The notes below the pieces were generated by a model, which did not search any database, was not told the DNA's origin, and worked only from the letters and a program-made list of their open reading frames with translations. A stretch of 48,614 nucleotides of DNA, the filler included, from Stramenopiles sp. TOSAG23-2 (taxonomy: Eukaryota), in assembly GCA_900128395.1 (NCBI GenBank). It is 2 parts of 2 records of this genome, joined end to end, with 100 filler letters (N's around TTAATTAATTAA, not from the genome) between each part and the next. Parts side by side here need not be neighbours in the genome. Positions count along the whole stretch, not along the records: positions 24,413 to 48,614 come from LT649469.1; 1 more part is not named here. The stretch is one strand, 5' to 3'. Every line of letters starts with the position of its first letter. Position 1 is the first letter of the stretch. Shown here one piece after another: positions 9,218 to 48,614 of this stretch. The translations under genes and the position numbers were made by a program.

Positions 9218-9892
9218 TTACAACTTGCCTTTTGGTGCTTCACCTTTTGGATTCACTTTCATTCCTCTTGGTGGATAAAATGCAGGTCTTTTCGTCGTTA
9301 AATTGACCCATGTCAATACATTTGGCCATGGACTATAATCAAATTTTATAGCACGACCATATTGACCCACTACAGAAGCCATCATTACATCTGCCACTGT
9401 GAACCTTCCTCTGCCTTCACCAATTAAATAATCACGTCCTTCAAGTTCCGTATTCAATGCATTCAATAATGGTTGCAATTTTTTCGTAAACTGAACACGA
9501 CCTTCTTTACCACCTTGTCCAAATACCATTGGCAATAAATTTGGTTCAAAATTACTGATACTAGATAATCCATACATTGAAATGCGAGCTCGTTCACCTT
9601 CATTTTGTGCTGACATAGGACCACCTAAAACGTTTGCAATGTATTGACAAATTGCTTGGGACTCGTATAAAACCACATCGCCATGTTTCATCACTGGTAT
9701 AAGGCGGTATGGATTTAATTTTAGAAATTCTTCCGTATCACGCACATCATTAAATCCAGTAACTGGCCCGCCAGTATCGACTTCAAGGAAATCTTCACCT
9801 ATTTTCATTCCATATTCTCTTAGCAACCAATATGGTCTTGATGCTCGAGAAGCTTGATGTCCATAAATTACAATTTTATCTTTTGATGCCAT
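9218..9892 (-). CDS. Glutathione S-transferase
   Basis: SRASRPYWLLRE, FLKLNPYRLIPVM, LYESQAICQYI and the C-terminal FTVAD motif; 224 aa. Confidence 0.93.
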   Translation of the reverse strand: MASKDKIVIYGHQASRASRPYWLLREYGMKIGEDFLEVDTGGPVTGFNDVRDTEEFLKLNPYRLIPVMKHGDVVLYESQAICQYIANVLGGPMSAQNEGERARISMYGLSSISNFEPNLLPMVFGQGGKEGRVQFTKKLQPLLNALNTELEGRDYLIGEGRGRFTVADVMMASVVGQYGRAIKFDYSPWPNVLTWVNLTTKRPAFYPPRGMKVNPKGEAPKGKL

Positions 9893-33600: not shown

Positions 33601-34102
33601 AAGTAAATATAAACGTAATTTAAGTGATGGAAGCAAACAATTGCAAAAAGAGAAAGATGCATTGGAATATAAATTAAAAACATCGAAAACAGAAAATGAG
33701 AAATTAAATGGTTTAAATGTAAAATATAAACAAGGTGAAGAAGAAGCAAAAGGTACAATGAAAGTGACAAAAGCAGTGGATAATGCAGAAATTAAAGAAT
33801 TAAAAGCAAACGTATTGAAATTAGAAAAAGAATTAAATGCATTGAAATCAAAACATGATCGTGTATTGAAAGCAGAAGTAGGAAACAAAGAAACGGATAT
33901 TAAAAAAATCCAATATGAAAATAAAAATGAATTGACTAAATTACAAGAGGAAGCAACGAAAAAAGATGCATCATTGGAAAAAGAAAAACAAGGACGTGCA
34001 TATGATAAAAATTTATGCCATGATAAAATGAAGTTACTTACTGAACAATTGGAAGAAGCACGTAAAGGGGAAGATGATTGTATTCCAAGTATGTATATTT
34101 AG
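24617..34102 (+). CDS. Giant PH-domain, proline-rich, coiled-coil protein with one internal transmembrane helix
   Basis: 3161 aa. PH-like N-terminus (LEKK..GMFGGGNWKTRNCW...FRCPSEKEAKAWVEGL) and polyproline tracts. ~1800 aa E/K/Q heptad region, hydrophobic LCWLLALLILLIALLCGKIFLLG at 31568-31636, then ~820 aa more coiled coil. Confidence 0.85.
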   Translation: MSDPTLNQKRELPHIYDKDYQTTVQNARQLICTGKDLEKKQRKSGMFGGGNWKTRNCWVPSQGKFGLKTFFWIHMTKKLRGNEQIRREHLMEEARKKGNYFEFKDITDIAHDEKNRKQFIIHDVHHSDARFRCPSEKEAKAWVEGLTLAINGKLRYLLEFTGGDTTTEISFKKDGTEIWEEGTICDYLFTQQQIDKGLPGIHVVAISDGMGETVYQEVDFALTEYHLKRGKNKNFAHERVGKEVELYQKMKKLNQMNKLKIKGVDGKVKKTTTTTTTTKTTTKMNLPPPPAFALPPPSDDDTPMKRLLVKVKKILGEQNVLLEITQKREQALARKLKDLQDKLKKKDGELKRLIEFPPKTLKPDELKWSIKNLKKQRDKYRKQLDLQYRQAKLQREEAEKEKKKLQDQINEAQKAGKLDPTPAPQFNYYFTIPQLPIKYGKDPEMKKEEPPPPAFAPPGLPPPPVFNKAPPPKRTPPPRKQPDNQIAAAMNLMAPDTEEVKTNADNAAEIEALRKKLAIETKEHEIYETKSNQLDAQLSDKDKSLMVTERERDQLLQDLENERKRRAELSAALLMAREAKTLEADAAARKAAAEKEKELQEKMNKLSKQRSELNMQLASQMEKANAEKSATDSRLAQSQKDQKAAMQKFQDEHEKLEKLEGERAQLIIILQQKKDNCKDLEGRIDALQASLDSTKTQSAAEKEKAEQEKQELQAKLLLANGSLEDTQGRLAKLLEEEKAAHQKDIEESKKREMELENKLKSEYAYHEQAETKLSEKDKSLKNTEKERDQFLNELEDERKKRHGLQAELLMAREAVKTESSAAAKNAAEEKEKELQVAIADLNKQRNELQIRLKLEIETLQNEQKSTNDQLAHTQQEQQQAMEQFQNEHEKLAKVEAERAQLLIVIQNNKSDCKELKDQIDDLQSKIKNKDSISKKEHDQNVKDVKALEKKLKLANDALENTQGELARLLKEEKAAHEKDAEEFRKYKADMEARLAEEEKFHTNAINEREKLITELDAEKHERNDLEVQLRAAREMQKQSDAELRKAAEEKEKELQKQIKELGKKRLSLKEQLEKTMKDLDNERNIANETIAAERDRQRQLLEQYEAEHSKYEVTEHKRAALEVELAANKSNCKSLEGRIDELQKILNNKSKQSKQELNDAAKEKEALQAQLLMANSNLSDTEGRLAKLLEEEKAAHQKDIENFNDKKEQLEQLIQDEKKEQEVLKSELQDAKNDVEASKNKSKEQQRLAMEKQAELELKINVQHGLTNTLKDQLEALKEKEAKEVAMANEKQRLSELEIQRLKDELDQYKRDLEAAESEAEMTSNQLDKVMSANSQNEKQKSAAREMHANAERQRKELHDAHEELRRQLEFEKEKQKQLVDKDAALLKAEREKHAEEQKRLKQELALEKEKEEEIERKRGILQRNLDQEREESKFLAEELEKLKKQMQDQANKSSEEIEKEKEMEKNLQDQLQQSNQTIDLIRQDLEKALKEEKKARREEKKRADMKTAELEDHLKKGEEMQQNLTEKIKKLEQSLNEELDNERRLEMGRTQVKRRLDKERGVVEKLLRKIGELKNERLHNKEMTDEMKRDARRKEANLNKELAVTQAKVKEIEENLKKELEMEQGAHKEDLLKLKAITQKKDEIETHLNDELSNNAALQDELERLKKMMADKEAKNTKIHQDDRDEIARSEEQLKKSDIMLNDIRDKHKKQLEEEEAMHSKAQLAMEQRKKELESKLEEEKKREAELNNNLKRLRKDIDDGKKREDDLVNQRNEVEGLLEDKESENTDLKEQLKRLLESNEKGNKSSQERDAEIKRLQARIVQSDKEMDAVKARLSKQLQDEKIAHKADADKAQEEQKSLQKKLREEDARWKLLNEGLKSELENLDQKEKEERRLLDLAMEEQGQLETRLDDASKRYDLVTLDNKQKEEEIAELKKELQKLTKSINDAQNQVLMKEDDVKKADKLYKDAEDAKNHREEELRQMEEDFRNKTLNADADFDDLNKQLEALKKQIKEKEQEKEALNKQLGDTEAEREKLAVDNKNLETMKEKVEEQFKNSTEINEVLEQEVKTQKEEVENQKTQLGEKDDEIENQKAQLGEKDDEIEELRDQLMQIGGKVNEHKESHSKLAKQHDEEKAKLKKDLKKAEQERKSHEASAKKHMQAKESLEKTMKDSEKKLKELKEQQKKLKSEASNAQNQSKQHKQKVNNLQEELKNAKESNKNLKNTVGEKDDEIKKLKEKSHDVDHLENEIKHLKEENERLKNRPMPEEEDENFNKVTTQQKKSKSKPPENDRPPANDEQIEKLKVELKDKTKERSNLCWLLALLILLIALLCGKIFLLGDDSNKQEDDDRFNKLQIKYNTQVKQYSLLETDMKNAKYQHGRLLTEAKTAEEKSKQNALTQTNYYKKEKAAHATKKTRITELEKEIAALKKELKAIKYKESQLAAGQSGNEKQLTKLQDEIKRLKKEKSDLSDELKQCNRKKKEAQSEAKVSKAALSTAKEEMVAKVKTIEAKVKTIEARDAEIVELKKKIKNLESSLAAETAAVAKLKQTASASSSQLQKDVNKRDDEIKKLKAQIKTLQASEKELKTTIENLKNEVKKLKEDRKQAQYRIDAANGLVKEKENSLQKQVKAYDALNAKAQTLSAEKDKLTKDKYDLEQKLKKVEYNLSTANGELKTSKATINTQTKKIATLSAEKDKLTKDKYDLEQKLKKVEYNLSTANGELKTSKATINTQTKKIATLSAEKDKLTKDKYDLEQKLKKVEYNLSTANGELKTSKATIDTQTKEIAKKKQKIKELLDEIAKLKNVGGNADGRVKQLEKDVANLKAKLEKQEKSYETLQSAKNVVDVSEKKLKTSTYNLEQELKKLKSKLDTTERNLKTLKTSTDKSIANLQTQVKDKESAINKETKAHKKDNTEKNEEITKLTKKLKDNSYKQGTSNKDYEYKITQLNKEIGVLGGKIDKLQKENEQIAALDTKLKASQSELNKLTKQRDEEQSKYKRNLSDGSKQLQKEKDALEYKLKTSKTENEKLNGLNVKYKQGEEEAKGTMKVTKAVDNAEIKELKANVLKLEKELNALKSKHDRVLKAEVGNKETDIKKIQYENKNELTKLQEEATKKDASLEKEKQGRAYDKNLCHDKMKLLTEQLEEARKGEDDCIPSMYI
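32540..32980. repeat. Coding tandem repeat, 3 x 147 nt (49 aa = 7 heptads)
   Basis: acattatcagccga starts at 32540, 32687 and 32834; the copies are nearly identical. Confidence 0.95.
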
Positions 34103-35006: not shown

Positions 35007-38000
35007 ATGGAAGGTGCGAAAGAAACAGCGGAAAATATTGTTCAAGAAGGACAAAATATAGCACAAAATGGTATTGAAATGGCAAGTAATATGTCAAACT
35101 ATATAGCGGCAAATCAAGGTGCTATTACAGAAGGTGCAACAAATGTTGGTAATAACGTTATCAATACTGCATCAACAACTGCAAAACAAGCAGGTGCCCT
35201 TGGTGCTACTCTTGGTACAGCTGCTTTGAATACAGGACAAACCGTCGGTACAGCTGCTTTAAATACAGGACAAACTGTTGGCAATAATGTTGTGAATGCT
35301 GGTAGAACTGTTGGCAATAATGTTGTGAATGCTGGTAGAACTGTTGGCAATAATGCTGTGAACGCAGGTAAAATTGCTGGCAATGCCGCTATAAATGCTG
35401 GTCAAACACTTGGTACACAAGCAGAGGAAACTGGCACTATGCTTGCTCACAATGCAGCCATTGCAAAAGATGATGTAAAGGAGGCAGCTACAACTGCAGG
35501 TAAAGTAGGAGCCGTTGTCGGTGCAACAATGTCAACTAAAATATCGGAACAAAGCCATGTAGTATTGGGGCAAGCATTAGCAGCAGTGAAAGATATCAAT
35601 GTGGAAGAATTTGAATTTCCAGTAAATATTAAAATACCAGATATTGATTTTACCTCTGTAACCAATGTAATAGATGATGGCACTGATAAAGTAATGGACT
35701 TCGTCGCCACTCCAGCGGTACAGAATGCAATGGGTGAAGCAGTAGATTTATGTAGCAAAGTGACACAATATATTCCATTTGATTTAGCTAAATTTGAAAT
35801 TGTACGTGATTTTTATCAAATTTTAGGTATTTTAGTAGAATGTATTAGCTTTCCAGTAGTCTTTGAAGAATTTTTCGGTACAATTGCGAAAATTATGTCA
35901 TTAGCTGTAAGTGATTTATTAAAATATGCTATTTCCATTTCCAACTTAGCATGGTGGTGGATTATTACAGTCATTGCCATATTAGCATTAGTAATGGTAT
36001 TGAATTTTTTTAAACAAGACGTTGGTAAAGATATAAGTAAAGTTGGTTTAAATGTGGAGGTAAAAGCGAGGAAATTTGATTGGAAGAAACAAAATCAAAA
36101 AGATGGCGGTAGTCGATATCGTAAAGTGAAATATTTATTATTTTTAATGACATCGATCTATGCACCAGTAAGTCGAAATGCAATCCAAATGATATGGTGT
36201 GCGGATAAATATGCATATGCACGATTTAAATGCGAGACTTTCCATTTTGACAATGCTACCGGGACAAATATAGCCGATGCGGAGCCAATATTTGGTTATT
36301 TATCAAAAGGTAATACATTATGTTTAGAGGTGAGACAACAATTATTGCCATCGTTACCAAATAAAGGTGGTTTACCGGAGGGAACAATATTGGAAACTTC
36401 ACATGAAAGGATGACCATAACAAAAAGTGCTGCATTTACTACAACATTTGGTGGAAATACGGTAGAAACGCTTGGTGGTTCATGTTGGAACAACGAAGGG
36501 CATTTAATACATGTATTGCTATCGATAATTGTTGTTATTATGATCACAATACGTTTTCCACGTCAAATGTCAAGGGTAATTGTTGCATTTAGGCCACAAC
36601 CAATTGAGCCAGATGATCCAAAGCATCCGTATAAAGACCCACCACAATTAGGTACGCCAAATTACAATGAAGAGGTGAGAAAACAAATGGAACTTTGTAC
36701 GAAACCTGTATGGTTCAATGATGAAGGTGGCGTGGAGGAATTTACCAGTGCAGTATATGCACGTGAAATTGCTAGGCTTGGAGACAATCCATATGTCTAC
36801 CTATATGAAATGTACGAAGAAAAATGGGCACATTTTAAAACATATGTGATGTGGTTTAAATTTATTCAGATTATTCCAGCAGTGACATTGACCGCATGGT
36901 TTTTTGATAATTTAATGACGGAAGATTCCCACGTACGTTCAATCATACAAGCAAGTTTTGCTATTTTTATCTTGGTATTTTATTTATATTTCGCATGTAA
37001 AGAACGCCCTTTTATCAACGCATTTAATGATTTTCTAGATCAAACGTGCCGTATGGTTTTATTATTTTGCCCTATTATTACAATTGTGGCATATGCGAGT
37101 GAAAATCCAAAAGGACAGGTTTGGGGCGACCTGCTAAATACAGTAGTAGGAATACATTTAGTGTTTTTAGTCATATCAACTGTTTTTAGTGGCCACTCCG
37201 CAGCTACTAGAATTAAAAAATTAACAGGGAGATTGGATTTTACAATTGGTTCTGTAAAATACAAAGGGAATGTTGGGACGTTGCCAAAATGGGACATGGC
37301 AATGGAACGAAAACGTCGTTTGTGGAAACCATTTTGGGATCATTTATTTCATGATGATGTGAAATTAAGTACAGTGAAAAAAGAAAAAGATCCAAAAACA
37401 GAAAAAGAAAAAGATGTACGATTACCCATTGTCAAACCATTTGTAGATGGACCATTGATGAAACGTCCGCAAGATCGTTTGGATGAAATGATTGAAAAAT
37501 TACATACAAGAGGATTTAAAGCATGGGAAAGTAATTTATTACCGATGACACCTCAAGAAACGCAATTGCGATACCAGGTTCAAACCCAATTGGAAGGCAT
37601 CGATGTTTATTGCGATGATAAATGGACATCCGTTCCTGGGTTATCCAGTATTTTAGATCAACAATATTTACATGCCAAAAAGAAACGACAAGTATCTGAC
37701 GTTGTAAATGTACGCCAATCCAATTGGTGCACCATTGTAGTATCACCATTTCCATTTACCGTGAACATTTATTGGGAAAATTGTAATGTTGTCGGTGAAT
37801 TGGTATCATGGGGCTTAACAAAGTCACGAATACAAGAATTGTTACATAAAAATATGAGAGATCCTGATATTATATGGCAACGTCAAGTTCGATTAGCATT
37901 CCGTGCATTGGCAAAATCACAACAATTTACTGGCACATCTGCCCTTATGCTTTGCCCGATGGAAAAGTTAAGTAGTAATGGGACGATGATGCGATATAGT

Positions 38001-39548
38001 AAATGCAGCGTTGAATGGCCGGAAGTATCGAACCTTGCTACATTAGATGCTGATAATAAAAATCTGAAACGAGATATTGAATTAGCAGGGCAACCGCGAT
38101 TTTTATATCAAGATGGTACAGATGCAAACAGTGGGACGGCAACTGCGCCAGATCGTTATTTTACATTGGATGAATTGGGCATTGGTAAAAATTACAATAA
38201 ATCAAATCGTTTATTGAATATGTTAGGATGGGTACCAAATGGCAATCAAAATACAAACGTCGTACGTAAATGCATGCAAGACTATTTAGAATTTATTTCA
38301 GAAAAACGAAATGAAAATTTAAAACCCCGTGTATTGGATCAATATAGTTTGTCGTGGGGTTTTTGGTATTTTGTTTATAATAACGATATGTTGTCACGCA
38401 TTGATTTGGAACGATATTTGCAATCTGGTGCAGAGCAAAATCCATTGGTACGTAATATATTGACAAGGAAGAAGAAAGATTTAAATTTATTATATTCCAT
38501 GTTAAATTTTTACAATTCTTCCCCATTATGCGCATATTGGTTTTCATTTTGGTACGATGTATGGATGCACAATCAAGATTTACCAAAAATCAAAGAAGCA
38601 GAGAAATTATTAGATTTTTTAACACCAGATGCAATTTGTTACAAACCAATGGGAATGATAACATTACGAAAGGTATTGCAAAAATATGGAAATCCATTAG
38701 GATCAAAACAAGAACAATATTTAAAAGCATTATTTACACGTTTAAAGGAATGTGCATTGGAAAACAAGGTATATCAATTACCATTAGTGTCGTATCAGGC
38801 ACCATTTCAAATTAAATATTTAATTACAAATCGCGCAGTGAACAAGGTAATGGATGCATATTTATTATCAGATAAATACAATCAAGGGGAAGAGTTTGAT
38901 GATCAAAAGCCTAGAATGCCACCTATAGCAACTGCTGCAAATATTAGGGGGGATTTAGAGAAAGCGATGAAATTAGGTATGGATGCTGCACAACAAAGTA
39001 TTAATGCACATCAACTTCAAATCAACCAAGCGAAAATGCAAGAGCAGCAACGACAAGCAATTCAAGCACAACAAATGTTACAAGTCCAACAAGCAAGGAC
39101 GGAACAATTAAAACGTCAACAAGAACATCAAGAAAAAATGATCAAAGAACAACAAAGACTAGCCGCAGAACGTAAGAAACAACAAGAGGAGCAACAGAAA
39201 CGTATGCAGGAAATGTATAAGAAGCAACAAGAAGAGCAACGACGAGCGCAAGAAGAGCAACGACGAGCGCAAGAAGAGCAACAGAAACGTATGCAGGAAA
39301 TGTATAAGCAACAACAAGAGCGACAACGACAAGCGTATGGTGGATATGGTCAACAACCTGCGCCACAACAATTCATGCAGCAGCAGCAGCAGCAACAACA
39401 ACAACAAGGTGGAGATGTTATGGCAGTACAAGTACCATATGGAATGGGTCCAGGGCAAATGATACAAATACAAACACCAAAAGGTATGATGCAAGTACAA
39501 ATACCACAAGGTGTTGGACCAGGGATGACATTTCATGTACGTGTGTGA
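35007..39548 (+). CDS. Uncharacterised multi-pass membrane protein with N-terminal 11-mer repeats, Q-rich coiled coil and C-terminal VPxGxGPG repeats
   Basis: 1513-aa ORF. (TVG(T/N)(A/N)xxN(T/A)Gx)n 33-nt repeats at ~35210-35420; roughly 7-8 hydrophobic segments at 35930-37190; tail VQVPYGMGPGQMIQIQTPKGMMQVQIPQGVGPGMTFHVRV. Confidence 0.75.
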   Translation: MEGAKETAENIVQEGQNIAQNGIEMASNMSNYIAANQGAITEGATNVGNNVINTASTTAKQAGALGATLGTAALNTGQTVGTAALNTGQTVGNNVVNAGRTVGNNVVNAGRTVGNNAVNAGKIAGNAAINAGQTLGTQAEETGTMLAHNAAIAKDDVKEAATTAGKVGAVVGATMSTKISEQSHVVLGQALAAVKDINVEEFEFPVNIKIPDIDFTSVTNVIDDGTDKVMDFVATPAVQNAMGEAVDLCSKVTQYIPFDLAKFEIVRDFYQILGILVECISFPVVFEEFFGTIAKIMSLAVSDLLKYAISISNLAWWWIITVIAILALVMVLNFFKQDVGKDISKVGLNVEVKARKFDWKKQNQKDGGSRYRKVKYLLFLMTSIYAPVSRNAIQMIWCADKYAYARFKCETFHFDNATGTNIADAEPIFGYLSKGNTLCLEVRQQLLPSLPNKGGLPEGTILETSHERMTITKSAAFTTTFGGNTVETLGGSCWNNEGHLIHVLLSIIVVIMITIRFPRQMSRVIVAFRPQPIEPDDPKHPYKDPPQLGTPNYNEEVRKQMELCTKPVWFNDEGGVEEFTSAVYAREIARLGDNPYVYLYEMYEEKWAHFKTYVMWFKFIQIIPAVTLTAWFFDNLMTEDSHVRSIIQASFAIFILVFYLYFACKERPFINAFNDFLDQTCRMVLLFCPIITIVAYASENPKGQVWGDLLNTVVGIHLVFLVISTVFSGHSAATRIKKLTGRLDFTIGSVKYKGNVGTLPKWDMAMERKRRLWKPFWDHLFHDDVKLSTVKKEKDPKTEKEKDVRLPIVKPFVDGPLMKRPQDRLDEMIEKLHTRGFKAWESNLLPMTPQETQLRYQVQTQLEGIDVYCDDKWTSVPGLSSILDQQYLHAKKKRQVSDVVNVRQSNWCTIVVSPFPFTVNIYWENCNVVGELVSWGLTKSRIQELLHKNMRDPDIIWQRQVRLAFRALAKSQQFTGTSALMLCPMEKLSSNGTMMRYSKCSVEWPEVSNLATLDADNKNLKRDIELAGQPRFLYQDGTDANSGTATAPDRYFTLDELGIGKNYNKSNRLLNMLGWVPNGNQNTNVVRKCMQDYLEFISEKRNENLKPRVLDQYSLSWGFWYFVYNNDMLSRIDLERYLQSGAEQNPLVRNILTRKKKDLNLLYSMLNFYNSSPLCAYWFSFWYDVWMHNQDLPKIKEAEKLLDFLTPDAICYKPMGMITLRKVLQKYGNPLGSKQEQYLKALFTRLKECALENKVYQLPLVSYQAPFQIKYLITNRAVNKVMDAYLLSDKYNQGEEFDDQKPRMPPIATAANIRGDLEKAMKLGMDAAQQSINAHQLQINQAKMQEQQRQAIQAQQMLQVQQARTEQLKRQQEHQEKMIKEQQRLAAERKKQQEEQQKRMQEMYKKQQEEQRRAQEEQRRAQEEQQKRMQEMYKQQQERQRQAYGGYGQQPAPQQFMQQQQQQQQQQGGDVMAVQVPYGMGPGQMIQIQTPKGMMQVQIPQGVGPGMTFHVRV

Positions 39549-40208: not shown

Positions 40209-41450
40209 TCAAACATTCATTTTCATACTATATATATCATTTAATTGCCTACGTTGGGAATTACCATTACGTATTGGATCGATTAATAAATCAATTGGTA
40301 ATAATGCATAACTAATTTCACGACGTGTATACATCATACCATTGATCTTTTTACTCCACATTGGTCGATTACCCCAACCAGCTGGAATGCATGTACATTT
40401 AGTAACAAAACAATTCCCAATCACTTTATTTTTATCACGATTTACACCATCTTTAAATTTATCATGGCAATAAAATTTACCTATAATAACAATTGCATGC
40501 CCATCTGCACCTGATTTACGTGTTGGTTCCCATGGATTATTATATGGATCAAATCGTGGTGGTATGAATGCTTCTTTTCGGCAATCTTTTGTTTTCGATG
40601 CACTATTTGCCCATGGATAACCAAGCTCTTCAATTCCACAATAAACAGGACCTTGTTCAATTAATTTACATAATTGATCTACTCGATATAATCTACCTTG
40701 ATCTTTTGGTTGATATGGATTCGAGGAACCCCAAATACGTGGTATGATATCTCGTAAATGTGCACCTTTTTCAATAGTTTCTTTCATTGCACCAATTTTA
40801 GATAGATCTTTTCCCCAATTTTTTCTATGTTGTATTTCATATGCAGAGATCGCACCCATTACTGTACAATCATTTTTTTGTTGTTCTTGAATTGGAAATT
40901 GTTTTTTATTTTTTTCACCAATAGCAAGTATAAAATCAAGCCATGTTTTAATATTATTATTATTGTTGTTGTCATGCGTACTGATGCTATTGTTGTTGTC
41001 GTTGTTGTTTATTCTTTCATTTACAAAATTATCATCAAACCAATTGCAATATGTAAATTTTTCGATGATTTTATTTGTTCTGGAACTTTTACGGCGTTTT
41101 GTAGGAGTGGTGGTGGTGGTGGTGGTAGTTAAATCGATTATTGATTCAACTTTATTATTATCATTATTATCTGGATGATTTCTTTGTTTCCGTTTTTTAC
41201 GAGTTTTCTTGGTGGTGGTGGTGGTGGTGGTAGTTAAATCGATTATTGATTCAACTTTATTATTATCATTATTATCTGGATGATTTCTTTGTTTCCGTTT
41301 TTTACGAGTTTTCTTGTTTGGTTTCGTTTTGTTTGATTCTGTTGTGGTGCCTTTTGTTTGATGATTGGCTATTTTATTTAATGATTTCAAACGTGTTGGA
41401 TTTCTTTTTTTCAACCGTTCTGTTAAAGTTAATGAAGTGGAGGAGCTCAT
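40209..41450 (-). CDS. Divergent papain-like (clan CA) cysteine protease domain with basic low-complexity N-terminus
   Basis: QEQQKNDCTVMGAISAYE (Gln...Cys helix), GPVYCGI, DGHAIVIIG (His) and FVTKCTCIPAGWG parallel papain QxxCGSCWAFS, GPV, HAVxIVG and IVKNSWGxxWG. No signal peptide. Confidence 0.6.
   Translation of the reverse strand: MSSSTSLTLTERLKKRNPTRLKSLNKIANHQTKGTTTESNKTKPNKKTRKKRKQRNHPDNNDNNKVESIIDLTTTTTTTTKKTRKKRKQRNHPDNNDNNKVESIIDLTTTTTTTTPTKRRKSSRTNKIIEKFTYCNWFDDNFVNERINNNDNNNSISTHDNNNNNNIKTWLDFILAIGEKNKKQFPIQEQQKNDCTVMGAISAYEIQHRKNWGKDLSKIGAMKETIEKGAHLRDIIPRIWGSSNPYQPKDQGRLYRVDQLCKLIEQGPVYCGIEELGYPWANSASKTKDCRKEAFIPPRFDPYNNPWEPTRKSGADGHAIVIIGKFYCHDKFKDGVNRDKNKVIGNCFVTKCTCIPAGWGNRPMWSKKINGMMYTRREISYALLPIDLLIDPIRNGNSQRRQLNDIYSMKMNV
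41106..41315. repeat. In-frame 105-nt tandem duplication (NLS-like + IIDLT motif + poly-Thr)
   Basis: KKTRKKRKQRNHPDNNDNNKVESIIDLTTTTTTTT occurs twice; tagttaaatcg at 41126 and 41231. Confidence 0.92.
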
Positions 41451-41839: not shown

Positions 41840-43900
41840 CTATAATAGTTCTATCTGCATCCATTCCACTTGTTGATACCCGTTTGATCCATCTTTTTTA
41901 TATTGTTCTATAGCTTTTAATTGTGATTTCATATTAGAACTAAGTTGATTATTACGTAGGAACAATCTCTTTAATGTATTGTTTGTTTTTAATCCATCAA
42001 TAATACTTTGTATTCCACTATCATCAGTAATATTATTATTATCTAGGTACAATCTCGTTAATGTGTTGTTTGTTTTTAATCCTTCACCAATACTTTGTAC
42101 ATCAGTAATATTATTATAAGGTAGGTACAATACCTTTAATGTCTTGTTTGTTTTTAATATCACACCAATAGCTAATGCATCCATATCCGTGAGATTCTTT
42201 CCTTTATTGTTTGTTTTTAATCCTTCACCAATACTTTGTACATCAGTAATATTATTATAATCTAGGCCCAATCTCGTTAAATAATTTTTGTTTGTTTTTA
42301 ATCCTTCACCAATACTTTGTACATCAGTAATATTATTATTACCCAGGCGCAATATCGTTAATATATTGTTTGTTTTTAACAATTCACCAATAGCTATTGC
42401 ATCCTCATCCGTGAGATTCTTTCCACTCAAATCCACTTCCGTTTTACTACTATTCCAAAACGACCCAGTCCCATTAATTTTTTTGTCCCATTTAATATAT
42501 ACAGCACTTTTTTTCTTCAATTCATCAACATGTTCTTCTTTCAACTTTCCTACTATTTCAACATTATCTAAGAACGAATCAGTAGTCGTCGTTGCCGTTG
42601 TATCTTCTTCCCATTTAATATATACAGCACTTTTTTTCTTCAATTCATCAACATGTTCTTCTTTCAACTTTCCTACTATTTCAACATTATCTAAGAACGA
42701 ATCAGTAGTCGTCGTTGCCGTTGTATCTTCTGTATCTGTACCATTAATACGTTGTATTTCTTTCTCTTCTTCTTGTTTTATAGAAGATTTCACTGGATAT
42801 GCCGATACACCCATAGTTTGTTTTGTTGAATCAGGATAATCTGAATGATCAAATACTACTGTTGTTGCTATTGGTTTCTTTTTTTGCTTAACATTATTAT
42901 TTGTAATAATGCTCTTTATGTTTCTATCATTATTAACATAATTATCAATACCCCCATTCGGTTTCTTTTCATTATTCATATTGTTATTATTAATATTTTT
43001 GCTATCTATGACATTATTGTTATTGCTCTTAGTTTTCATATTTTCAATCTTATCATCATTATTAGCATCTCTTATCGGCACAACTAGTTCACGCCCTTCA
43101 TCTTCCTTTTTCAAACTCTCATCATCTTTAAATGTCGTATCTGTAATAGTACTATGAAAATAACCATCTTTCACAGGTTCATTTACAATTATTAAACAAT
43201 CTTTTGCACGTGTCATGGCACGATACAATGTCGTTTTATCTTTATTATGCTGCGTACGCAATTCATTAATTTTTACACCAAAACCAACCACAATAGCTAC
43301 ATCATATTCTAAACCATCTTGATTTGAAATGGTATCCACCACCATTTCCACTGATTTATGTTCTTCCAATTGTGGAAATTTTCCAAACATCTCCTCAGCA
43401 CTAAATAGTTCAAATTTAACGTTACTTTTGCTTTTTGCAATTATTGCATTTAATTTCCTTTGTAAACGGGTTTTGAAATCATCTTTTTTAAAATTAGTGT
43501 CATTACTAGGAATAATAATAGAAACACGATGATCTAAATCCACCAAAAATCCAAAATCATTTGCCTTTCGATTTTTTGCATATTTGATTGCCTCTATTGT
43601 TGCAAGAACATATGCATTTAAAATCGTATCATTTTTTTGAACATCCACCATAAACATTTTCACCGCTTCACCAAATGGTTTGGTTTTACATGTTGGTGTT
43701 TGCTCCGTGTGTTTAAATAGATGTGATGCTAAAGTAATTCGTTGCGTTGATCGTACGACATCATTTAATTCTATATTGTAAATATTTTCCATTGTTTGAT
43801 CGTCATCTTCTTCTTCCTCGGCAGCTGCTTCAGCTAATTTCTCTCTTATATTATTCATATTCGATGGATCTTGAGACGGATCTGTAAGTATCGACATCAT
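41840..43900 (-). CDS. C-terminal fragment of the S74-TIR-helicase-LRR gene: SF1 helicase C-terminal RecA domain plus RNI-like LRRs
   Basis: RSTQRI (motif IV-like), DTISNQDGLEYDVAIV (motif V), LYRAMTRAKDCLIIV (motif VI). LRRs LKTNNTLTRLYLDNNNITD at ~42440-41930. Confidence 0.85.
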   Translation of the reverse strand: MMSILTDPSQDPSNMNNIREKLAEAAAEEEEDDDQTMENIYNIELNDVVRSTQRITLASHLFKHTEQTPTCKTKPFGEAVKMFMVDVQKNDTILNAYVLATIEAIKYAKNRKANDFGFLVDLDHRVSIIIPSNDTNFKKDDFKTRLQRKLNAIIAKSKSNVKFELFSAEEMFGKFPQLEEHKSVEMVVDTISNQDGLEYDVAIVVGFGVKINELRTQHNKDKTTLYRAMTRAKDCLIIVNEPVKDGYFHSTITDTTFKDDESLKKEDEGRELVVPIRDANNDDKIENMKTKSNNNNVIDSKNINNNNMNNEKKPNGGIDNYVNNDRNIKSIITNNNVKQKKKPIATTVVFDHSDYPDSTKQTMGVSAYPVKSSIKQEEEKEIQRINGTDTEDTTATTTTDSFLDNVEIVGKLKEEHVDELKKKSAVYIKWEEDTTATTTTDSFLDNVEIVGKLKEEHVDELKKKSAVYIKWDKKINGTGSFWNSSKTEVDLSGKNLTDEDAIAIGELLKTNNILTILRLGNNNITDVQSIGEGLKTNKNYLTRLGLDYNNITDVQSIGEGLKTNNKGKNLTDMDALAIGVILKTNKTLKVLYLPYNNITDVQSIGEGLKTNNTLTRLYLDNNNITDDSGIQSIIDGLKTNNTLKRLFLRNNQLSSNMKSQLKAIEQYKKDGSNGYQQVEWMQIELL
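42487..42732. repeat. In-frame 123-nt tandem duplication in the helicase-LRR linker
   Basis: EDTTATTTTDSFLDNVEIVGKLKEEHVDELKKKSAVYIKW occurs twice; cccatttaatatat at 42487 and 42610. Confidence 0.93.
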
Positions 43901-44327
43901 TTAATTCTATATTGTAAATATTTTCCATTGTTTGATCGTCATCTTCGTCTTCCTCGGCAGCTGCTTCAGCTAATTTCTCTCTTATGTTTACATTCTCTGA
44001 ACGGTCAATTTCTGCCAATAATTCACTAATATCATCTTCTTCTTCCTCATTTAATTCTATATTGTAAATATTTTCCATTGTTTGATCGTCATCTTCTTCT
44101 TCCTCGGCAGCTGCTTCAGCTAATTTCTCTCTTATGTTTACATTCTCTGAACGGTCAATTTCTGCCAATAATTCACTAATATCATCTTCTTCTTCCTCAT
44201 TTAATTCTATATTGTAAATATTTTCCATTGTTTGATCGTCATCTTCTTCTTCCTCGGCAGCTGCTTCAGCTAATTTCTCTCTTATATTATTCATATTCGA
44301 TGGATCTTGAGACGGATCTGTAAGTAT
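43756..44327. repeat. Acidic tandem repeat block, 4 copies with periods 136, 150 and 150 nt; the 136-nt step frameshifts
   Basis: tcatttaattctatattg at 43761, 43897, 44047 and 44197, encoding IREKLAEAAAEEEEDDDQTMENIYNIELN. Confidence 0.93.
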
Positions 44328-45032
44328 AATTCGTTTTTTTGCCTTATAAAAAAAATCTCGACATATTTGTTTCCATTCTTTATTCTTTTCATGTATAATA
44401 TGATGTGCTTCATCAACAACTATTAAATTATATTCATCTACACGGTCTGTATCTTGAATTTGATCAAAATGTAAATATACCGGCTGATCGTCGGAATCTT
44501 GTTTTAATATACCTTGATGTGCTTTATATCCTGTATTTTCAGTACAAAAATGTATACAATTTAAAATATATTGAGGATTATATTTCGTTGCATCATCTTC
44601 TTTTGTCTCATCATCACTTTTATCTTCTTCTTTTGTATTTATAATACGAATTAAAATCCATCTAGCTAAAAATTTTGCAAATCCATTTTTTGTACAAACA
44701 AACAATATTTTCGTCTTTGAATTGTGTTTAATTTCTTTTGTAATAAAATCTAATGCTAAATATGTTTTACCTGAACCAGCTGGACCGTGAATATGAATAT
44801 TGTTAATTTTGTTGTCGTTGTTATATTTGTTATAATATTCATCTAGTTTTTTTCGCTGATCAGGTGTGAGAGTATCGTTTGCTAGTCTACCTTCTTCGCA
44901 TATCTTTCTTAACGTATTCAATAATTGTCTTCGTTCCGGTAGACAATTGATGTTGATATTCTTGCATCCTATCTTTGTAGCAATTTTTTGAACATCGCCT
45001 ATTTGCATCATATTATTTAATGCTTCTATCAT
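43851..45032 (-). CDS. Middle fragment of the S74-TIR-helicase-LRR gene: SF1 (UvrD/Schlafen-helicase-like) N-terminal RecA domain
   Basis: Q-motif-like LTPDQRK, Walker A IHGPAGSGKT (44787-44764), motif Ia ILFVCTK, Walker B LIVVDEAHH, motif III ILTDPSQ. Confidence 0.87.
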   Translation of the reverse strand: MIEALNNMMQIGDVQKIATKIGCKNININCLPERRQLLNTLRKICEEGRLANDTLTPDQRKKLDEYYNKYNNDNKINNIHIHGPAGSGKTYLALDFITKEIKHNSKTKILFVCTKNGFAKFLARWILIRIINTKEEDKSDDETKEDDATKYNPQYILNCIHFCTENTGYKAHQGILKQDSDDQPVYLHFDQIQDTDRVDEYNLIVVDEAHHIIHEKNKEWKQICRDFFYKAKKRIILTDPSQDPSNMNNIREKLAEAAAEEEEDDDQTMENIYNIELNEEEEDDISELLAEIDRSENVNIREKLAEAAAEEEEDDDQTMENIYNIELNEEEEDDISELLAEIDRSENVNIREKLAEAAAEEDEDDDQTMENIYNIELNDVDTYRSVSRSIEYE

Positions 45033-45452
45033 ATTGTTAAGATTTTCTAGATTCCAGGTGTGAGAGTATCGTTTGCTAGTCTACCTTCTTCGCATATCTT
45101 TCTTAACGTGTTCAATAATTGTCTTTGATCCGGTAGACAATTGATGTTGATATTCTTGCATTCTGGTATCATTGTGACAATTTCTTGTAGGTATCCGGGT
45201 CGCAGCGTGCGTATTTTTTCTCTAAGATGATTCAGATTTTGTGGGTTATTTGTGACATACGTTTGAACAAAATTATAGAAAATTGCTGGGGTATGTTTTA
45301 TTTCAGCATTACAGGGACAATTTCTTGTAGGTATCCGGGTCGCAGCGTGCGTATTTTTTCTCTAAGATGATTCAGATTTTGTGGGTTATTTGTGACATAC
45401 GTTTGAACAAAATTATAGAAAATTGCTGGGGTATGTTTTATTTCAGCATTAC
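44861..45452. repeat. Two frameshifting duplications (194-nt and 140-nt periods) between the TIR and helicase coding regions
   Basis: caggtgtgagagtatc at 44861 and 45055; gacaatttcttgtaggtatcc at 45176 and 45316. Confidence 0.92.
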
Positions 45453-47582
45453 TGGGATTATTATTATTATTATTATTATCATTATTATTATTATTTTGTG
45501 GTTTTGCGCGTAATATTTCTTCTTCCACTTCTTTTGGTACCAACGCTGCATTGCTTTTTATATTTGTTTGTAAAAGTGGGATAATTTTTGTTTTCATTTT
45601 TTTTCTTATTTCTTGCATTTTATTAATAGCAGAACCACCCGATAATTGCTCAATTATTTCGTCAATGTTTACATTTAAAACACGCGGGTTGTCACGATCT
45701 ACTTTCATAAATGATATATCACCAAGAAATTTAAATTCATCTGGAGCCAATGACATTAATTCTCCAATTTTCTGTTGATCATTTCTTCGAACAACAGGTT
45801 GAATCGGTATACCAGCTTCTTTTGCCCATCTTAATTCTTCGCGACAGTACCATCGATTAAAATATGCATTCTTTTCAGGTGGATCAGAAGGATTGTCTTC
45901 ATTTACACAAGGGCCAGTTATGATAGCAAGAAATAATTTACACTTCTGAACTCCTTCTTGCATTGCTTCAGTTGCAGGATTGGGCATTTTAACATCTAAC
46001 CATACAGTATAACCTTTCGTAGTCAATTCATGGTACAGAGTGGCAGCAAGTGTAGTTGCCTGCCCACTGCGTCTCGAATGACCAATGAAAAAATCCCAAT
46101 GTCCAGGATCATTAAAAAATTTTGCACTTGTTGTTGATGACATGTCGCTAACATTATTCTGACGGTTTGTAAAAGTCTTCTTCCGTTTATCATTTGTAAA
46201 CTTTACATTATTATTATTATTATTCCGCTCGAAGCTTTGTTGTCGTGCAACCAATACTTTTCCCGCATCACCTGAATACTCGACTATCTGTTTCCCCGAC
46301 CTTGTTTCTACCGTTTTTTTTATTGTTAATTTTCCCTTATTCTGTTGATATTGTTGTTGTTGCTCTAGTTCATCAACTCGACCATCTATCTTTACAACAT
46401 CTTTTTCCAAGGCAATAATATTTTCCTCTAACTTGACATACTTTCCATAAATATTACAATAAAACGTTTTTAATCTTTTCAAATTTTCATTCATTTTTGT
46501 GGACAACTCTTTTTGATTACTGAATAGGTTCTGAATACTTCGAATTAATAATGCACGTATGGCATTGGAATTAACAACTAAACGTCTTCCTTTTTTAATC
46601 TGTTTTTGTCCATCTTTATCTAAAATCGGAATTCCACTTTCATCTTTGATTACACGATCGTTCATATTTTCACGAGTTACGTTTATGCTCTGATCTTCAT
46701 AGTGTATTAATGGAATTCGTAAGTTTTTACCTATTTCCCATAAATCTTCTGCAATATAACCTGCATCCAAATTGCCATTACTGATCCATTCGTAAATATG
46801 CAAGTTTAAGCCGGATACTTGTTCTAAAACGTCATCTGGAAATGGAGTATCTGTCTGTATTATTTTCAATTCAGAATCAGATAATACTTGTAATTGATCA
46901 ACAATAGCTTGGGCAATATATGCATTATTTACATATATTGTATCAAAGTTATATGATAGGTTGCTATTAGTTATGTTTAAGTTTGCATTTGGGAATGAAA
47001 CTATACCATTGTTGTTGATTCTTAAATTAGTGCCTGGAAAGTAGTTAGTTTCCTTATGGGCTTGATATACAATTAAGATTTGAAATTTTATATTTGATAA
47101 GGATATGCCATCACGATCGTATACTTGAAAATTTACAGGTTTTTCCTGATCGAACTGGTCTTTAAAAAAAAAATGTTTTCGATTTCTTTGTCTTCCATTT
47201 CTTGTATTGTCAATATGGCAAAAATTCAACGAGACATTGTTGTCAAGGGGAAGGTCGTACTGCGACGCCGTATTAAGTCCTCTACAGACAATGCTCCCAT
47301 AAGGCACATTATTATTATTATTATTATTAGAATCACTCAAACTCAATATACCATGTAGCTTAGGAACAATTCCGTTCCCTGTTGTATTTCCTCCTAGATT
47401 CCCTCGTAAAGCAAATATATTATATGTAGAATCACTTTCATCACAAATCAATGAGCATAGAGTTTGACGATCAACATTTGTAATTTTTATTTTTAAAACA
47501 TATTCATTTTCCTGTTGTTGGGATTGTATATAACTTTCCTGCTGTCCCATACCGAATAAATCATCATCATATGAATTATCAA

Positions 47583-47615
<33 letters not shown>

Positions 47616-47619
47616 CCAT
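45298..47619 (-). CDS. N-terminal fragment of the S74-TIR-helicase-LRR gene: beta-rich domain, peptidase S74/ICA-like domain, coiled coil, TIR domain
   Basis: TIR: WDFFIGHSRR, GYTVWLD, AMQEGVQKCKLFLAIIT, YFNRWYCREELRWA, IQPV (~46100-45650). S74-like: LSDSELK...DVLEQVSGLNLHIYEW...AGYIAEDL...LLIRSIQNL (46881-46520). First ATG is at 47619. Confidence 0.82.
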
Positions 47620-47739
47620 GATTATACATATATATATATATTTCTCAAATAAAAAAATAGAATAGAATGAATATAAATGAATCAAGATGTATATATGATA
47701 TCATCTATTGATATTATATATATTATTAAGATTACCACA

Positions 47740-47983
47740 GATCAGATTTTAATATATATAGGCATAGATTTAGATTATATTATAGATTTTATATATTAGA
47801 ATAATAATAAAAAATAATAATAATAAATAATTATTAAGAATTGCTTAACATAAATACATATGATCAGATTTTAATATATATAGGCATAGATTTAGATTAT
47901 ATTATAGATTTTATATATTAGAATAATAATAAAAAATAATAATAATAAATAATTATTAAGAATTGCTTAACATAAATACATAT
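47740..47983. repeat. 122-nt perfect tandem duplication upstream of the TIR gene
   Basis: gatcagattttaatatatataggcatag at 47740 and 47862. Confidence 0.92.
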
Positions 47984-48082: not shown

Positions 48083-48111
48083 GTCACGAGTCACGAGTCA
48101 CGAGTCACGAG
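48083..48111. repeat. 7-bp microsatellite (GTCACGA)x4
   Basis: Read directly from the sequence. Confidence 0.9.
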
Positions 48112-48223: not shown

Positions 48224-48614
48224 AGTATAATGATTTCTCTCTGCTTTTTTCCAGACTTTTTTCTTCCTCCTGATATGTTTTGCTTATGTGCTTATTAATA
48301 CCAGGCTTATACCAGCTTTATTATCATTCCTGGAATTCAACAATTACCAGGTGCCCAACAGGGAATTAATATACATATTACTCTGGAAGAATGAGTATAA
48401 TGATTTCTCTCTGCTTTTTTCCAGACTTTTTTCTTCCTCCTGATATGTTTTGCTTATGTGCTTATTAATACCTATTATAATACCAGGCTTATACCAGCTT
48501 ATTATCATTTCAGCGCTATTTTTCTTTTTTTTTTCTTCCTTCTTCCCGGACGAATTCCTGGAATTCAACAATTACCAGGTGCCCAACAGGGAATTAATAT
48601 ACATATTACTCTGG
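48224..48614. repeat. Imperfect direct repeat block running to the window end
   Basis: agtataatgatttctctctgc at 48224 and 48394; ttcctggaattcaa...attactctgg at ~48327 and ~48556. Confidence 0.88.

Follow-up and report, generated by a model that had tools for sequence, protein, structure and literature searches.

The window, that is, the whole stretch of 48,614 nucleotides of Stramenopiles sp. TOSAG23-2 DNA analysed here, carries on its minus strand, to which all window features given below belong, a coding sequence (45298..47619, stop included) for a protein of 773 amino acids, counted from the ATG at 47619, in which a match to Peptidase_S74 (the intramolecular-chaperone autocleavage, or ICA, domain) precedes a TIR domain. 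The open reading frame as listed (45298..47685) opens at a TTG at 47685, and an MDNNNN start is common to the S74-TIR protein and its relatives P0009 and P0017. From the N-terminus, the protein comprises a variable head that looks beta-rich and matches no Pfam family (residues 39–199, 47023..47505), a stalk ending in NANLNITNSNLSYNFDTIYVNNAYIAQAIVDQLQVL upstream of the predicted cleavage site (residues 200–246, 46882..47022), the full ICA domain as aligned to our own broad S74 profile (residues 225–378, 46486..46947), a predicted three-stranded coiled coil delimited by the inter-chain contacts of a trimer model (residues 358–422, 46354..46548) and the TIR domain (residues 510–615, 45775..46092; Pfam TIR_2, 32.8 bits with a cut-off of 28). 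No transmembrane-like segment was found, the maximum 19-residue Kyte–Doolittle mean being 0.85 in this protein and 1.29 in P0017. The gene is followed by two further open reading frames, one encoding a helicase-like P-loop NTPase of 393 amino acids (43851..45032; ResIII 53.4 bits, DEAD 29.8 bits) and the other a helicase C-terminal-like segment with leucine-rich repeats (41840..43900; LRR_4 29.5 bits, and UvrD_C_2 weak at 14.6 bits).

An earlier note on this DNA had proposed an S74 autocleavage domain upstream of the TIR, at 46360–46960, from four short strings including SDSELK and AGYIAEDL. All four are found in the minus-strand translation of the S74-TIR frame, and the range corresponds to residues ~221–420, which take in the last part of the stalk together with S74 core and coil. 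The translation runs ...AQAIVDQLQVL-S-D-S-E-L-K-IIQTDTPFPDDVLEQVSGLNLHIYEWISNGNLDAGYIAEDL...RRLVVNSNAIRALLIRSIQNLFSNQKEL... and then enters a heptad-rich stretch, and within the ICA domain the motifs are ordered as SDSELK, HIYEW, GYIAEDL, a variable loop and RRLVVNSNAIRALLIRSIQNL. A curated profile, an independent profile with shuffle controls and language-model neighbours agree on the S74 identity. In the PF13884 comparison that the note had suggested, the window protein scored 22.7 bits against a cut-off of 22 (E = 1.2e-4; residues 247–299, 46723..46881), with profile positions 1–55 of 58 aligned and the match beginning exactly at Ser247. The three other members also exceed the cut-off (P0007 23.8, P0008 24.4 and P0017 24.8 bits), and in all four the match begins at profile position 1, the Ser; these scores, just above threshold, are marginal, and since the four members are 84–94% identical in the S74 core and coil they amount to roughly one observation.

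Our own profile was built from 46 domains, 32 from bacterial S74 loci and 14 of the 79 viral S74 domains extracted from 80 loci. It matched all four members at 20.1–24.8 bits across the whole domain (residues 225–378 in the window protein), gave the window region 24.7 bits when none of 2000 shuffles exceeded 10.4, and singled out the S74-TIR frame among the 254 six-frame open reading frames of the window (E = 7.4e-6; next 3.6). An hhalign comparison with the same 46-domain alignment gave E = 7.7e-4 and a probability of 25% over 106 columns, in the correct register. In the ESM Atlas PF13884 is present on all 30 of the neighbours listed (top score 0.92, recognition 2830), which share only 145–162 of 256 features with the query. 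Three PHROGs tail-fibre families were also matched, in each case at the C-terminal end of the family (E = 9.6e-4, 3.4e-3 and 0.071); P0007 repeats two of these matches at E of ~2e-3, and P0008 and P0017 repeat none. Judged by these alignments, residues ~225–378 very probably constitute a true Peptidase_S74/ICA domain.

The homotrimer model, also suggested by the note, returned three intertwined chains and a coiled coil ~65 residues long. Three copies of residues 201–459 reached an ipSAE of 0.89 in two runs and 0.87 in a third, whereas the best of three controls gave 0.02; partner pLDDT was at least 79, pLDDT 80–83, and the runs shared at least 83% of their contacts. The contacts recur with the three-to-four-residue spacing of heptads over chain residues 158–222, which are residues 358–422 of the protein, while the GYIAE and RLVVNSN motifs are found at inter-chain interfaces and residues 203–255, spanning the stalk and the site, within one. 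This arrangement agrees with the strictly conserved Gly and Val of MYRF, which PMC3742443 describes as contributed by different subunits. In calibration, the ipSAE mark was reached by 21 of 30 solved same-chain pairs and by none of 23 solved single chains, and among eukaryotic cases by 17 of 29, with only one of the seven lacking an older solved relative; as two copies were used there and not three, the trimer may have passed because it resembles ICA trimers already solved. An AlphaFold2 monomer of the S74 region from four sequences (pLDDT 41.5) was too poor for fold comparison; phage S74 sequences were kept out of its alignment because the model would then mirror them. According to the trimer model, the S74-TIR protein is likely to be trimeric.

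The Ser codon that the note had placed at 46881–46879 is that of Ser247 counted from the ATG at 47619, and Lys252 (46864..46866) lies five residues further on. Ser247, the predicted nucleophile, is assigned by position 1 of PF13884, by the Ser of the SDxxxK motif in our own S74 profile and by S911 of endoNF, the K1F endosialidase and prototype of the domain; Lys252, the predicted general base, has the spacing of S911/K916 in endoNF and of S587/K592 in MyRF. The segment S247-D-S-E-L-K252 aligns with endoNF S911-N-G-E-R-K916, the predicted scissile bond being Leu246|Ser247, and both Ser and Lys are kept with the correct spacing in all four members. For ICA domains in general, PMC3742443 gives the Ser and the Lys as absolutely conserved. 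The doubt raised in the note was that the usual Arg at +3 is replaced by Glu. The Glu is indeed there, but Arg fails as a defining residue: K1F endoNF itself carries Glu at this position (S-N-G-E-R-K), 33 of 111 natural domains have a residue other than Arg (78 have Arg), and the MyRF R590A mutant still cleaves, in part and at aberrant sites, according to PMC8326128. By comparison with these sites, Glu at +3 is not disqualifying for SDSELK.

A possible but doubtful alternative is that the domain is genuinely derived from S74 but has lost catalysis, acting together with the coil as a folding and trimerization scaffold leaving the head in covalent linkage with the TIR protein. SDSELK contains no basic residue at +2 to +4, where Arg at +3 is the commonest choice, and there is none in the 25 residues before Ser247, a stretch in which endoNF has R897; moreover, the trimer model requires no cleavage. 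A basic residue at +2 to +4 is likewise missing, however, from 20 of the 111 natural domains, and endoNF cuts despite its Glu at +3. We know of no cleavage test for any of these 20 domains. The MyRF data of PMC8326128 bear on both sides, since the coiled coil is described there as the main driving force for trimerization, whereas the Ser and the Lys are the sole residues whose loss abolishes cleavage (S587A and K592A), no stalk residue is needed and the R590A mutant cuts; it is precisely this Ser and this Lys that are retained in 4/4 members. Sequence comparison thus leans, if slightly, towards Ser247–Lys252 being an active self-cleavage site.

Identity to relatives is 91–94% in the S74 core, 81–94% in the stalk and 47–72% in the head. 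Relative to the paralogue, dN/dS is 0.31 for the S74 core, 0.91 for the coil, 0.80 for the head and 0.52 for stalk, S74 and coil together, values that derive from few changes (6.7 synonymous and 9.3 nonsynonymous for S74). An AlphaFold2 model of the head from six sequences had a pLDDT of 33.2.

Downstream of the coil, the Glu of the CxxEL motif, a candidate for the catalytic Glu of NAD-cleaving TIRs, is invariant in seven of seven aligned TIRs; PDB sequence searches with the TIR region and its profile matched no TIR chain. The fuller architecture of the protein is revealed by the paralogue P0017, a single open reading frame of 1460 amino acids (L083:7461-11843) with S74, TIR_2 (29.7 bits), ResIII (48.8 bits) and LRR matches, in the order variable head, stalk, S74, coil, TIR, helicase-like NTPase and LRR. 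Its locus, L083, was the only one returned by the second of two metagenome scans, the first having returned none, and P0008 also continues from S74 into the start of a TIR. The window NTPase frame shares 88% identity with the region of P0017 downstream of its TIR, and the LRR frame is colinear with L083 10314-12181. The receptor of the earlier note is accordingly larger than was first seen, running from the TIR through a helicase-like NTPase into leucine-rich repeats in the paralogue's single frame.

In the window, tandem duplications interrupt this order. A 140-nucleotide duplication (45176..45457; 2.0 copies, 99% matches), present as one copy in L083, shifts the frame and ends the S74-TIR frame at 45298; a second, older duplication of 194 nucleotides (44861..45240; 81% matches) repeats a ...CKNININCLP..RQLLNTLRKICEEGRLANDTLTP segment; and an array of 150 nucleotides within the NTPase region (43897..44285; 2.6 copies, 99% matches) changes the frame between the two downstream open reading frames. 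One X2 contig connects 43806 to 44364 across the array, the intervening part not being known, and no read contig bridges the junction of the 140-nucleotide duplication in either direction, cover there being near zero. The duplications after the TIR may be real or may be artefacts of assembly.

Because it is broken downstream of the TIR, the window copy is possibly decaying, and it could be a pseudogene whose S74-TIR frame is a relic, function being confined to paralogues such as P0017. Relative to that intact paralogue the three duplications split the gene into three frames, segments 9523-9619, 9587-9777 and 10353-10444 of L083 each being used two to four times in the window, and the N-terminal part as a whole does not show a low dN/dS (0.52 for stalk, S74 and coil, and 0.80 for the head). 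On the other hand, the 773-codon frame is intact, short contigs of two RNA libraries overlap it in part (X15 records 5-8 and X17 record 16), although these are not proof of transcription, and the duplications are two-copy repeats of 99–100% identity, several more of which occur in the window and which amplification or assembly could explain. Decay of this copy is therefore considered unlikely; it would be compatible with any other reading of the family as a whole.

The setting of the gene is cellular. Its neighbours in the window encode a ketoacyl synthase, a GST, an ABC transporter, a SulP protein and GKRP, and those of the paralogue in L083 a ubiquitin-repeat protein and ALG6/ALG8; GC content is even along the window, and no capsid, packaging ATPase, integrase or polymerase gene was found among the 16 large window frames scanned. 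The NTPase–LRR chassis recurs in P0018 with a different N-terminus and the same TIR type is also found behind kinase, SAM and LRR-TM modules, a pattern expected of a host receptor family. All of this stands against the gene being viral or a recent viral insertion, for instance a fibre gene of a polinton-like virus, a virophage or a giant virus with a TIR placed on the discarded chaperone end, where it might serve in viral counter-defence or as an NAD-depleting factor. What speaks for such an origin is that Nucleocytoviricota make up most of the S74 cluster closest to the domain in the ESM Atlas, that the clusters nearest to the head are all viral (Preplasmiviricota and Nucleocytoviricota), although at a score of only 0.84, a mere lead, and that Peptidase_S74 is described in PMC12220804 as ubiquitous at the C-termini of polinton-like virus fibre proteins integrated in protist genomes. 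A viral gene is thus very improbable; a protist-virus fibre protein, rather than MYRF, is nevertheless the likely origin of the module alone.

The K1F-like viral subfamily profile alone did not match the S74-TIR protein, hhalign gave probabilities of 0.35% to K1F and 0.3% to its subfamily, and a homology search with the K1F chaperone domain returned three proteins. A profile of the S74-TIR family scored at best 5.3 bits on the 79 viral domains, against 5.7 for the best shuffled or reversed control. PDB sequence searches with the protein and the family profile matched no ICA chain, tblastn with the domain as query returned five of 50,697 phage records, all with E of at least 5, no relative emerged when IMG/VR was scanned with the family alignment, and the window protein matched no NCBIfam family. 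When 1.84 billion representatives were searched exhaustively with residues 1–459, seven proteins were retrieved, six of them close relatives and one matching the coil only, with no phage or MYRF protein among them. That the S74 likeness is mere chance, residues ~225–378 being a beta-rich segment that precedes a trimeric coiled coil, might be argued from these failures at the subfamily level and in the PDB, from Pfam scores within 3 bits of the cut-off and from the matches of E = 1e-4 that scanning many windows yields at random, but it is very improbable given the score of the independent profile over its shuffles and its choice of one frame in 254, an alignment that spans the entire domain with its motifs in the correct order from the Ser onwards, the S74 annotation of 30/30 language-model neighbours listed, the C-terminal matches of three phage tail-fibre families and the location of the conserved motifs at subunit interfaces in the predicted trimer.

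The S74 domain, also called the C-terminal intramolecular chaperone domain (CIMCD), is not confined to phage tailspikes and fibres; bacterial surface fibres carry it as well, and so do the fibres of protist polinton-like viruses. With phage fibres such as endoNF the S74-TIR protein shares the profile family, a Ser–Lys pair with five-residue spacing where the domain begins, the Glu at +3, an aromatic pair, G-x-I-A-Q/E, a variable loop and a hydrophobic helix leading into a trimeric coil, as well as the upstream beta-stalk and intertwined trimer, both predicted here. It differs in lacking a counterpart of R897, in a similarity that is undetectable from the K1F-like subfamily alone, in being cytosolic, as predicted from the absence of a transmembrane-like segment, and in having no virion context, and above all in the position of the domain, which is not C-terminal but is followed by more than 350 residues in the window copy and ~1100 in the paralogue. 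Since a TIR, an NTPase and leucine-rich repeats follow S74, the 'chaperone' side would be the larger, functional product and not a discarded piece.

In this respect the S74-TIR protein resembles MYRF and Dictyostelium MrfA, membrane-bound transcription factors that ICA trimerization and self-cleavage activate. Like them it is a eukaryotic cellular protein with an internal ICA domain, and its Ser–Lys dyad and the coil behind it correspond to the dyad and the coiled coil or leucine zipper described in PMC3742443 and PMC8326128; as in those proteins, trimer-dependent cleavage would part an N-terminal trimer from a C-terminal trimer with a further function. In contrast to MYRF, however, residues 1–246 have no NDT80/PhoG-type DNA-binding domain (no Pfam match), and the ICA domain is followed not by a transmembrane segment but by TIR, NTPase and leucine-rich repeats. 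No MYRF protein was found in the exhaustive search, so the domain appears to have been recruited independently. A MYRF orthologue was rejected for want of the DNA-binding domain, the transmembrane segment and a MYRF match.

The succession of TIR, P-loop NTPase and LRR in one polypeptide, as in P0017, is that of plant TNL-like (TIR-NBS-LRR) proteins. Unlike in these, the P0017-type NTPase matches ResIII/DEAD and not STAND NB-ARC or NACHT (the window NTPase scores 19.4 bits with NB-ARC, below the cut-off of 23.5), and the TIR is not N-terminal but is preceded by a predicted self-cleaving trimerizer. A classical NLR was accordingly rejected, the NTPase being helicase-like and not STAND. SARM1, which is held as a preformed ring through its SAM domains, likewise has an oligomerization module beside its TIR; the order of the oligomer would differ, being three in the S74-TIR protein and not four, eight or more as in NLRs and SARM1. 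In the literature outside the fibre-architecture supplement of PMC12220804, which may list related fusions, no description was found of an S74-TIR fusion or of a self-cleaving trimerizer preceding a TIR.

The combination of S74 and TIR in a marine protist protein suggests a pre-assembled, self-processing receptor of immune type. Three chains would intertwine through the ICA domain and the coil, as in phage fibres and MYRF, and only within this trimer would the Ser247–Lys252 dyad be placed to cut Leu246|Ser247. The cut would part a trimeric head and stalk (residues 1–246) from a trimeric body of ICA, coil and TIR, with NTPase and LRR where these are fused, and the coil would then hold the three TIRs on flexible linkers of ~85 residues as a pre-assembled oligomer. 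By analogy with the preformed ring of SARM1, the NTPase–LRR part would restrain or release the TIRs. For this chain as a whole, from ICA domain and trimer through cleavage and head release to the TIR oligomer, we estimate a probability of about 0.55; for an immune or defence role of the S74-TIR family, which we infer from the architecture, the odds appear even.

ICA/S74 domains are otherwise known from viral and bacterial fibres, where they are discarded after folding, and from MYRF, where they free a transcription factor from the endoplasmic reticulum. If the proposed chain of events is correct, a soluble protist TIR-NTPase-LRR protein would be a third setting, in which the fold-then-cut device sets the oligomeric state of the TIR and cutting separates a variable head. 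TIR enzymes are activated by being brought together and this protein has an obligate trimerizer built in; the question therefore becomes how the receptor is kept silent and how it is fired. It would also offer a plausible case of a host gene of defence type adopting a structural module from viruses resident in protist genomes. The S74-TIR family is small and is known from computation alone.

A more speculative extension, which we regard as improbable, is that head, stalk and S74 represent the captured tip of a viral fibre kept as bait. Viral fibres with a related ICA domain, from polinton-like viruses, virophages or giant viruses, would co-trimerize with the receptor; the mixed trimers would either remain uncut or perturb the coil, and the altered spacing of the three TIRs would switch on TIR signalling. 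The fast-evolving head, with its 47–72% identity and dN/dS of 0.80, would then track the repertoire of viral fibres, and the immune receptor would sense the virus through the virus's own folding chaperone.

The S74-TIR protein is encoded on the minus strand of the window by an open reading frame (ORF) at 45298..47685 in the ORF listing, and its residues are counted from the ATG at 47619 (773 residues) because its relatives share an MDNNNN start. Two domains exceed the curated Pfam cut-offs: Peptidase_S74 at residues 247-299 (22.7 bits, cut-off 22, E 1.2e-4), aligned to profile positions 1-55 of 58 with Ser247 at the first position, and TIR_2 at residues 510-615 (32.8 bits, cut-off 28). An earlier note, made from sequence alone, had described an S74 autocleavage domain upstream of this TIR, and what it saw is correct: all of the motif strings that it quoted occur in the translation, Ser247 is encoded by codon 46881-46879 and the lysine five residues further on is Lys252. 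No transmembrane-like segment was found in the protein, the highest 19-residue hydropathy mean being 0.85.

Since the Pfam S74 score is marginal, independent support was sought. The relatives P0007 (23.8 bits), P0008 (24.4 bits) and P0017 (24.8 bits) also pass the S74 cut-off, which adds little because their S74 regions are 91-94% identical. An independent set was assembled from 80 viral loci, found with an alignment of the chaperone of the K1F endosialidase (endoNF, the S74 prototype), and 32 bacterial loci, obtained by searching 401 genomes from a single bacterial phylum with PF13884 (52 of these genomes had a match); one of the 401 is flagged as unpublished and its sequence was left out. 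A profile built from the 32 bacterial domains and 14 viral domains, taken from the 79 that were extracted, all independent of the S74-TIR protein, matches all four family members (20.1-24.8 bits). Its alignment covers the entire domain (window-protein residues 225-378), and the motifs succeed one another as expected, from SDxxxK through an aromatic pair, G-x-IAQ/E and a variable loop to the hydrophobic helix. Among 254 six-frame ORFs of the window, the S74-TIR ORF is the sole match (E 7.4e-6; runner-up 3.6), and the real region scores 24.7 bits against 10.4 for the best of 2000 shuffles. With hhalign, the S74 region gave E 7.7e-4 and a probability of 25% over 106 columns. PF13884 clusters make up all 30 listed ESM Atlas neighbours of the region (top score 0.92, recognition 2830, with just 145-162 of 256 features shared), and three phage tail-fibre families of PHROGs match at their own C-terminal ends (E 9.6e-4, 3.4e-3 and 0.071).

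The K1F-like subfamily profile alone gave no signal with the S74-TIR family in either direction, and hhalign returned probabilities of 0.35% to K1F alone and 0.3% to the K1F-like subfamily, in the correct register. A sequence search for a solved ICA chain found none, and from 1.84 billion representatives, searched exhaustively, only seven proteins were retrieved, six of them close relatives and one matching the coil only, with no phage or MYRF protein. Taken together, the PF13884 pass, the separation of our profile from the shuffles, the ESM Atlas neighbours and the PHROGs matches support the S74 reading, and the region is very probably homologous to S74 domains (probability of about 0.93).

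The earlier note had regarded activity as uncertain on account of a Glu in place of the usual Arg; the Glu at position +3 is present as described, but Arg there is not a defining residue. The K1F record reads R897...S911-N-G-E-R-K916 for endoNF, in which S911 and K916 have been equated with S587 and K592 of the eukaryotic transcription factor MyRF (PMC8326128), with numbering that agrees with this record; the prototype therefore also carries Glu at +3. In 111 natural S74 domains this residue is Arg in 78 and Glu in five, and a basic residue is absent from +2 to +4 in 20. The S587A and K592A variants of MyRF lose cleavage, and R590A shows partial, aberrant cleavage (PMC8326128). The Ser and Lys of ICA domains are described as absolutely conserved, and a Gly and a Val contributed by different subunits as strictly conserved (PMC3742443); the places matching the latter pair in the S74-TIR protein are GYIAE and RLVVNS. 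The S74-TIR protein has no basic residue near its Ser-Lys dyad and, unlike endoNF, no counterpart of the upstream R897. The Glu of endoNF, the 20 domains devoid of a basic residue and the MyRF variants make the site compatible with activity, and the balance tips slightly towards the predicted self-cleavage being active.

The trimer envisaged in the earlier note is predicted when three copies of residues 201-459 are modelled, with ipSAE values of 0.89, 0.89 and 0.87 over three runs (0.02 for the best of three controls), a partner pLDDT of at least 79 and contact agreement between runs of at least 83%. The mark applied was reached by 21 of 30 solved pairs of one chain and by none of 23 solved single chains, and on eukaryotes by 17 of 29, yet by one of seven that lack an older solved relative, in a calibration on two copies rather than three. 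The pass may stem from the model's training on solved ICA trimers, and would then show likeness to them. The inter-chain interfaces comprise residues 203-255 (stalk and cleavage 'cable'), 265-293 and 346-352; contacts at residues 358-422 are spaced by three to four residues, a pattern that predicts a three-stranded coil some nine heptads long. Monomer AlphaFold2 models were of no use.

Downstream of the S74-TIR ORF, two further minus-strand ORFs encode a helicase-like P-loop NTPase (43851-45032; ResIII at 53.4 bits, NB-ARC at only 19.4 bits, short of its 23.5-bit cut-off) and, by Pfam matches, a helicase C-terminal-like piece with LRRs (41840-43900). Searching with the NTPase identified two longer proteins. 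P0017, an intact paralogue of 1460 residues encoded by one ORF (L083:7461-11843), has an NTPase 88% identical to that of the window and contains, in order, the head, S74 (24.8 bits), coil, TIR_2 (29.7 bits), ResIII (48.8 bits) and LRRs. The NTPase-LRR chassis recurs in P0018 (1935 residues), whose N-terminal portion of about 1100 residues is unrelated and matches no Pfam family. Relative to L083, a blastn map places three tandem duplications in the window copy, of 140 nt (45176-45457), 194 nt (44861-45240) and 150 nt (43897-44285), which break the frame past the TIR; the 194-nt duplication is older than the others. Five tandem duplications in the window are near-perfect (99-100%; 105-150 nt, about two copies: 41107-41316, 42486-42731, 43897-44285, 45176-45457 and 47740-47983); some fall in coding sequence, and L083 has none of them. 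The window duplications may be real and recent or may derive from amplification or assembly; genuine decay of the window copy and an artefact are thus both possible. Adjoining the 4.4-kb receptor-like gene in L083, which has no intron, an ALG6/ALG8 glycosyltransferase is split across two ORFs (L083:12618-14131), which suggests that the organism has introns.

Between the window gene and L083, with every dN/dS value based on few changes, identity is 72% for the head (dS 0.20, dN/dS 0.80), 94% for the stalk (dN/dS 0.64), 91% for the S74 core (dN/dS 0.31) and 84% for the coil (dN/dS 0.91), dS being about 0.1 in the S74 core and coil; the linker and TIR are 31% and 36% identical, with saturated dS. 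Such divergence between similar flanks (S74 and coil on one side, the NTPase on the other) indicates that the TIR cassette (window 45298-46353, L083:8730-9740) was exchanged among family members. The window TIR is 78% identical to a TIR located behind a protein kinase and is related to those that follow SAM and LRR-TM modules. Parts of the gene also recur in other combinations, in P0018, P0002, P0004 and P0005. Polinton-like viruses integrated in the genomes of protists are reported to carry S74 domains ubiquitously on their fibre proteins (PMC12220804), and the ESM neighbours of both the S74 region and the head are viral clusters, although the head, at a score of just 0.84, provides a lead only. 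A viral fibre would thus be the likeliest source of the S74 module.

No paper pairing peptidase S74 with a TIR domain was found; in the accessible text of the one paper where PF13884, Peptidase_S74 and TIR all co-occur, 'TIR' denotes a terminal inverted repeat. Among the matches listed, none combines an intramolecular chaperone with a TIR domain, and no title on NLR-like protist proteins was relevant; no description of the S74-TIR architecture was therefore found. The best reading of the mechanism is that a self-assembling and probably self-cleaving trimeriser would set up a receptor-like protein composed of TIR, NTPase and LRRs.

Marine metagenome contigs (X2, X4) cover parts of the gene with 90-100% likeness, as do short contigs from two poly-A or oligo-dT RNA libraries (X15 records 5-8, X17 record 16), a weak hint of expression that falls short of proof. 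The window gene and its L083 paralogue are both embedded among cellular genes. With a GC content of about 32%, the eukaryotic DNA of the window has long ORFs for a glucokinase-regulator-like protein, an ABC transporter, a K+ channel, a ketoacyl synthase, a GST, an SPX-SulP-STAS transporter and a TSP1-repeat protein. A 3161-residue ORF (24617-34102, plus strand) with weak, coiled-coil-type Pfam matches only falls within a region where AT and GC skew are both strongly positive (26-34 kb), and ORFs of 1513 and 413 residues (35007-39548, plus; 40209-41450, minus) match no Pfam family. On the 5' side of the S74-TIR gene lies a (GTCACGA)x4 microrepeat (48083-48111), together with a roughly 200-nt direct repeat (about 48250-48614) that reaches the window end. 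A 1551-residue ORF (17278-21933, minus) joins SPX, sulfate permease, PBP_like_2 (periplasmic-binding-protein-like) and STAS in an uncommon transporter fusion, and another (14391-16862, plus) fuses GxGYxYP glycoside-hydrolase-like domains to a peptide methionine sulfoxide reductase domain.
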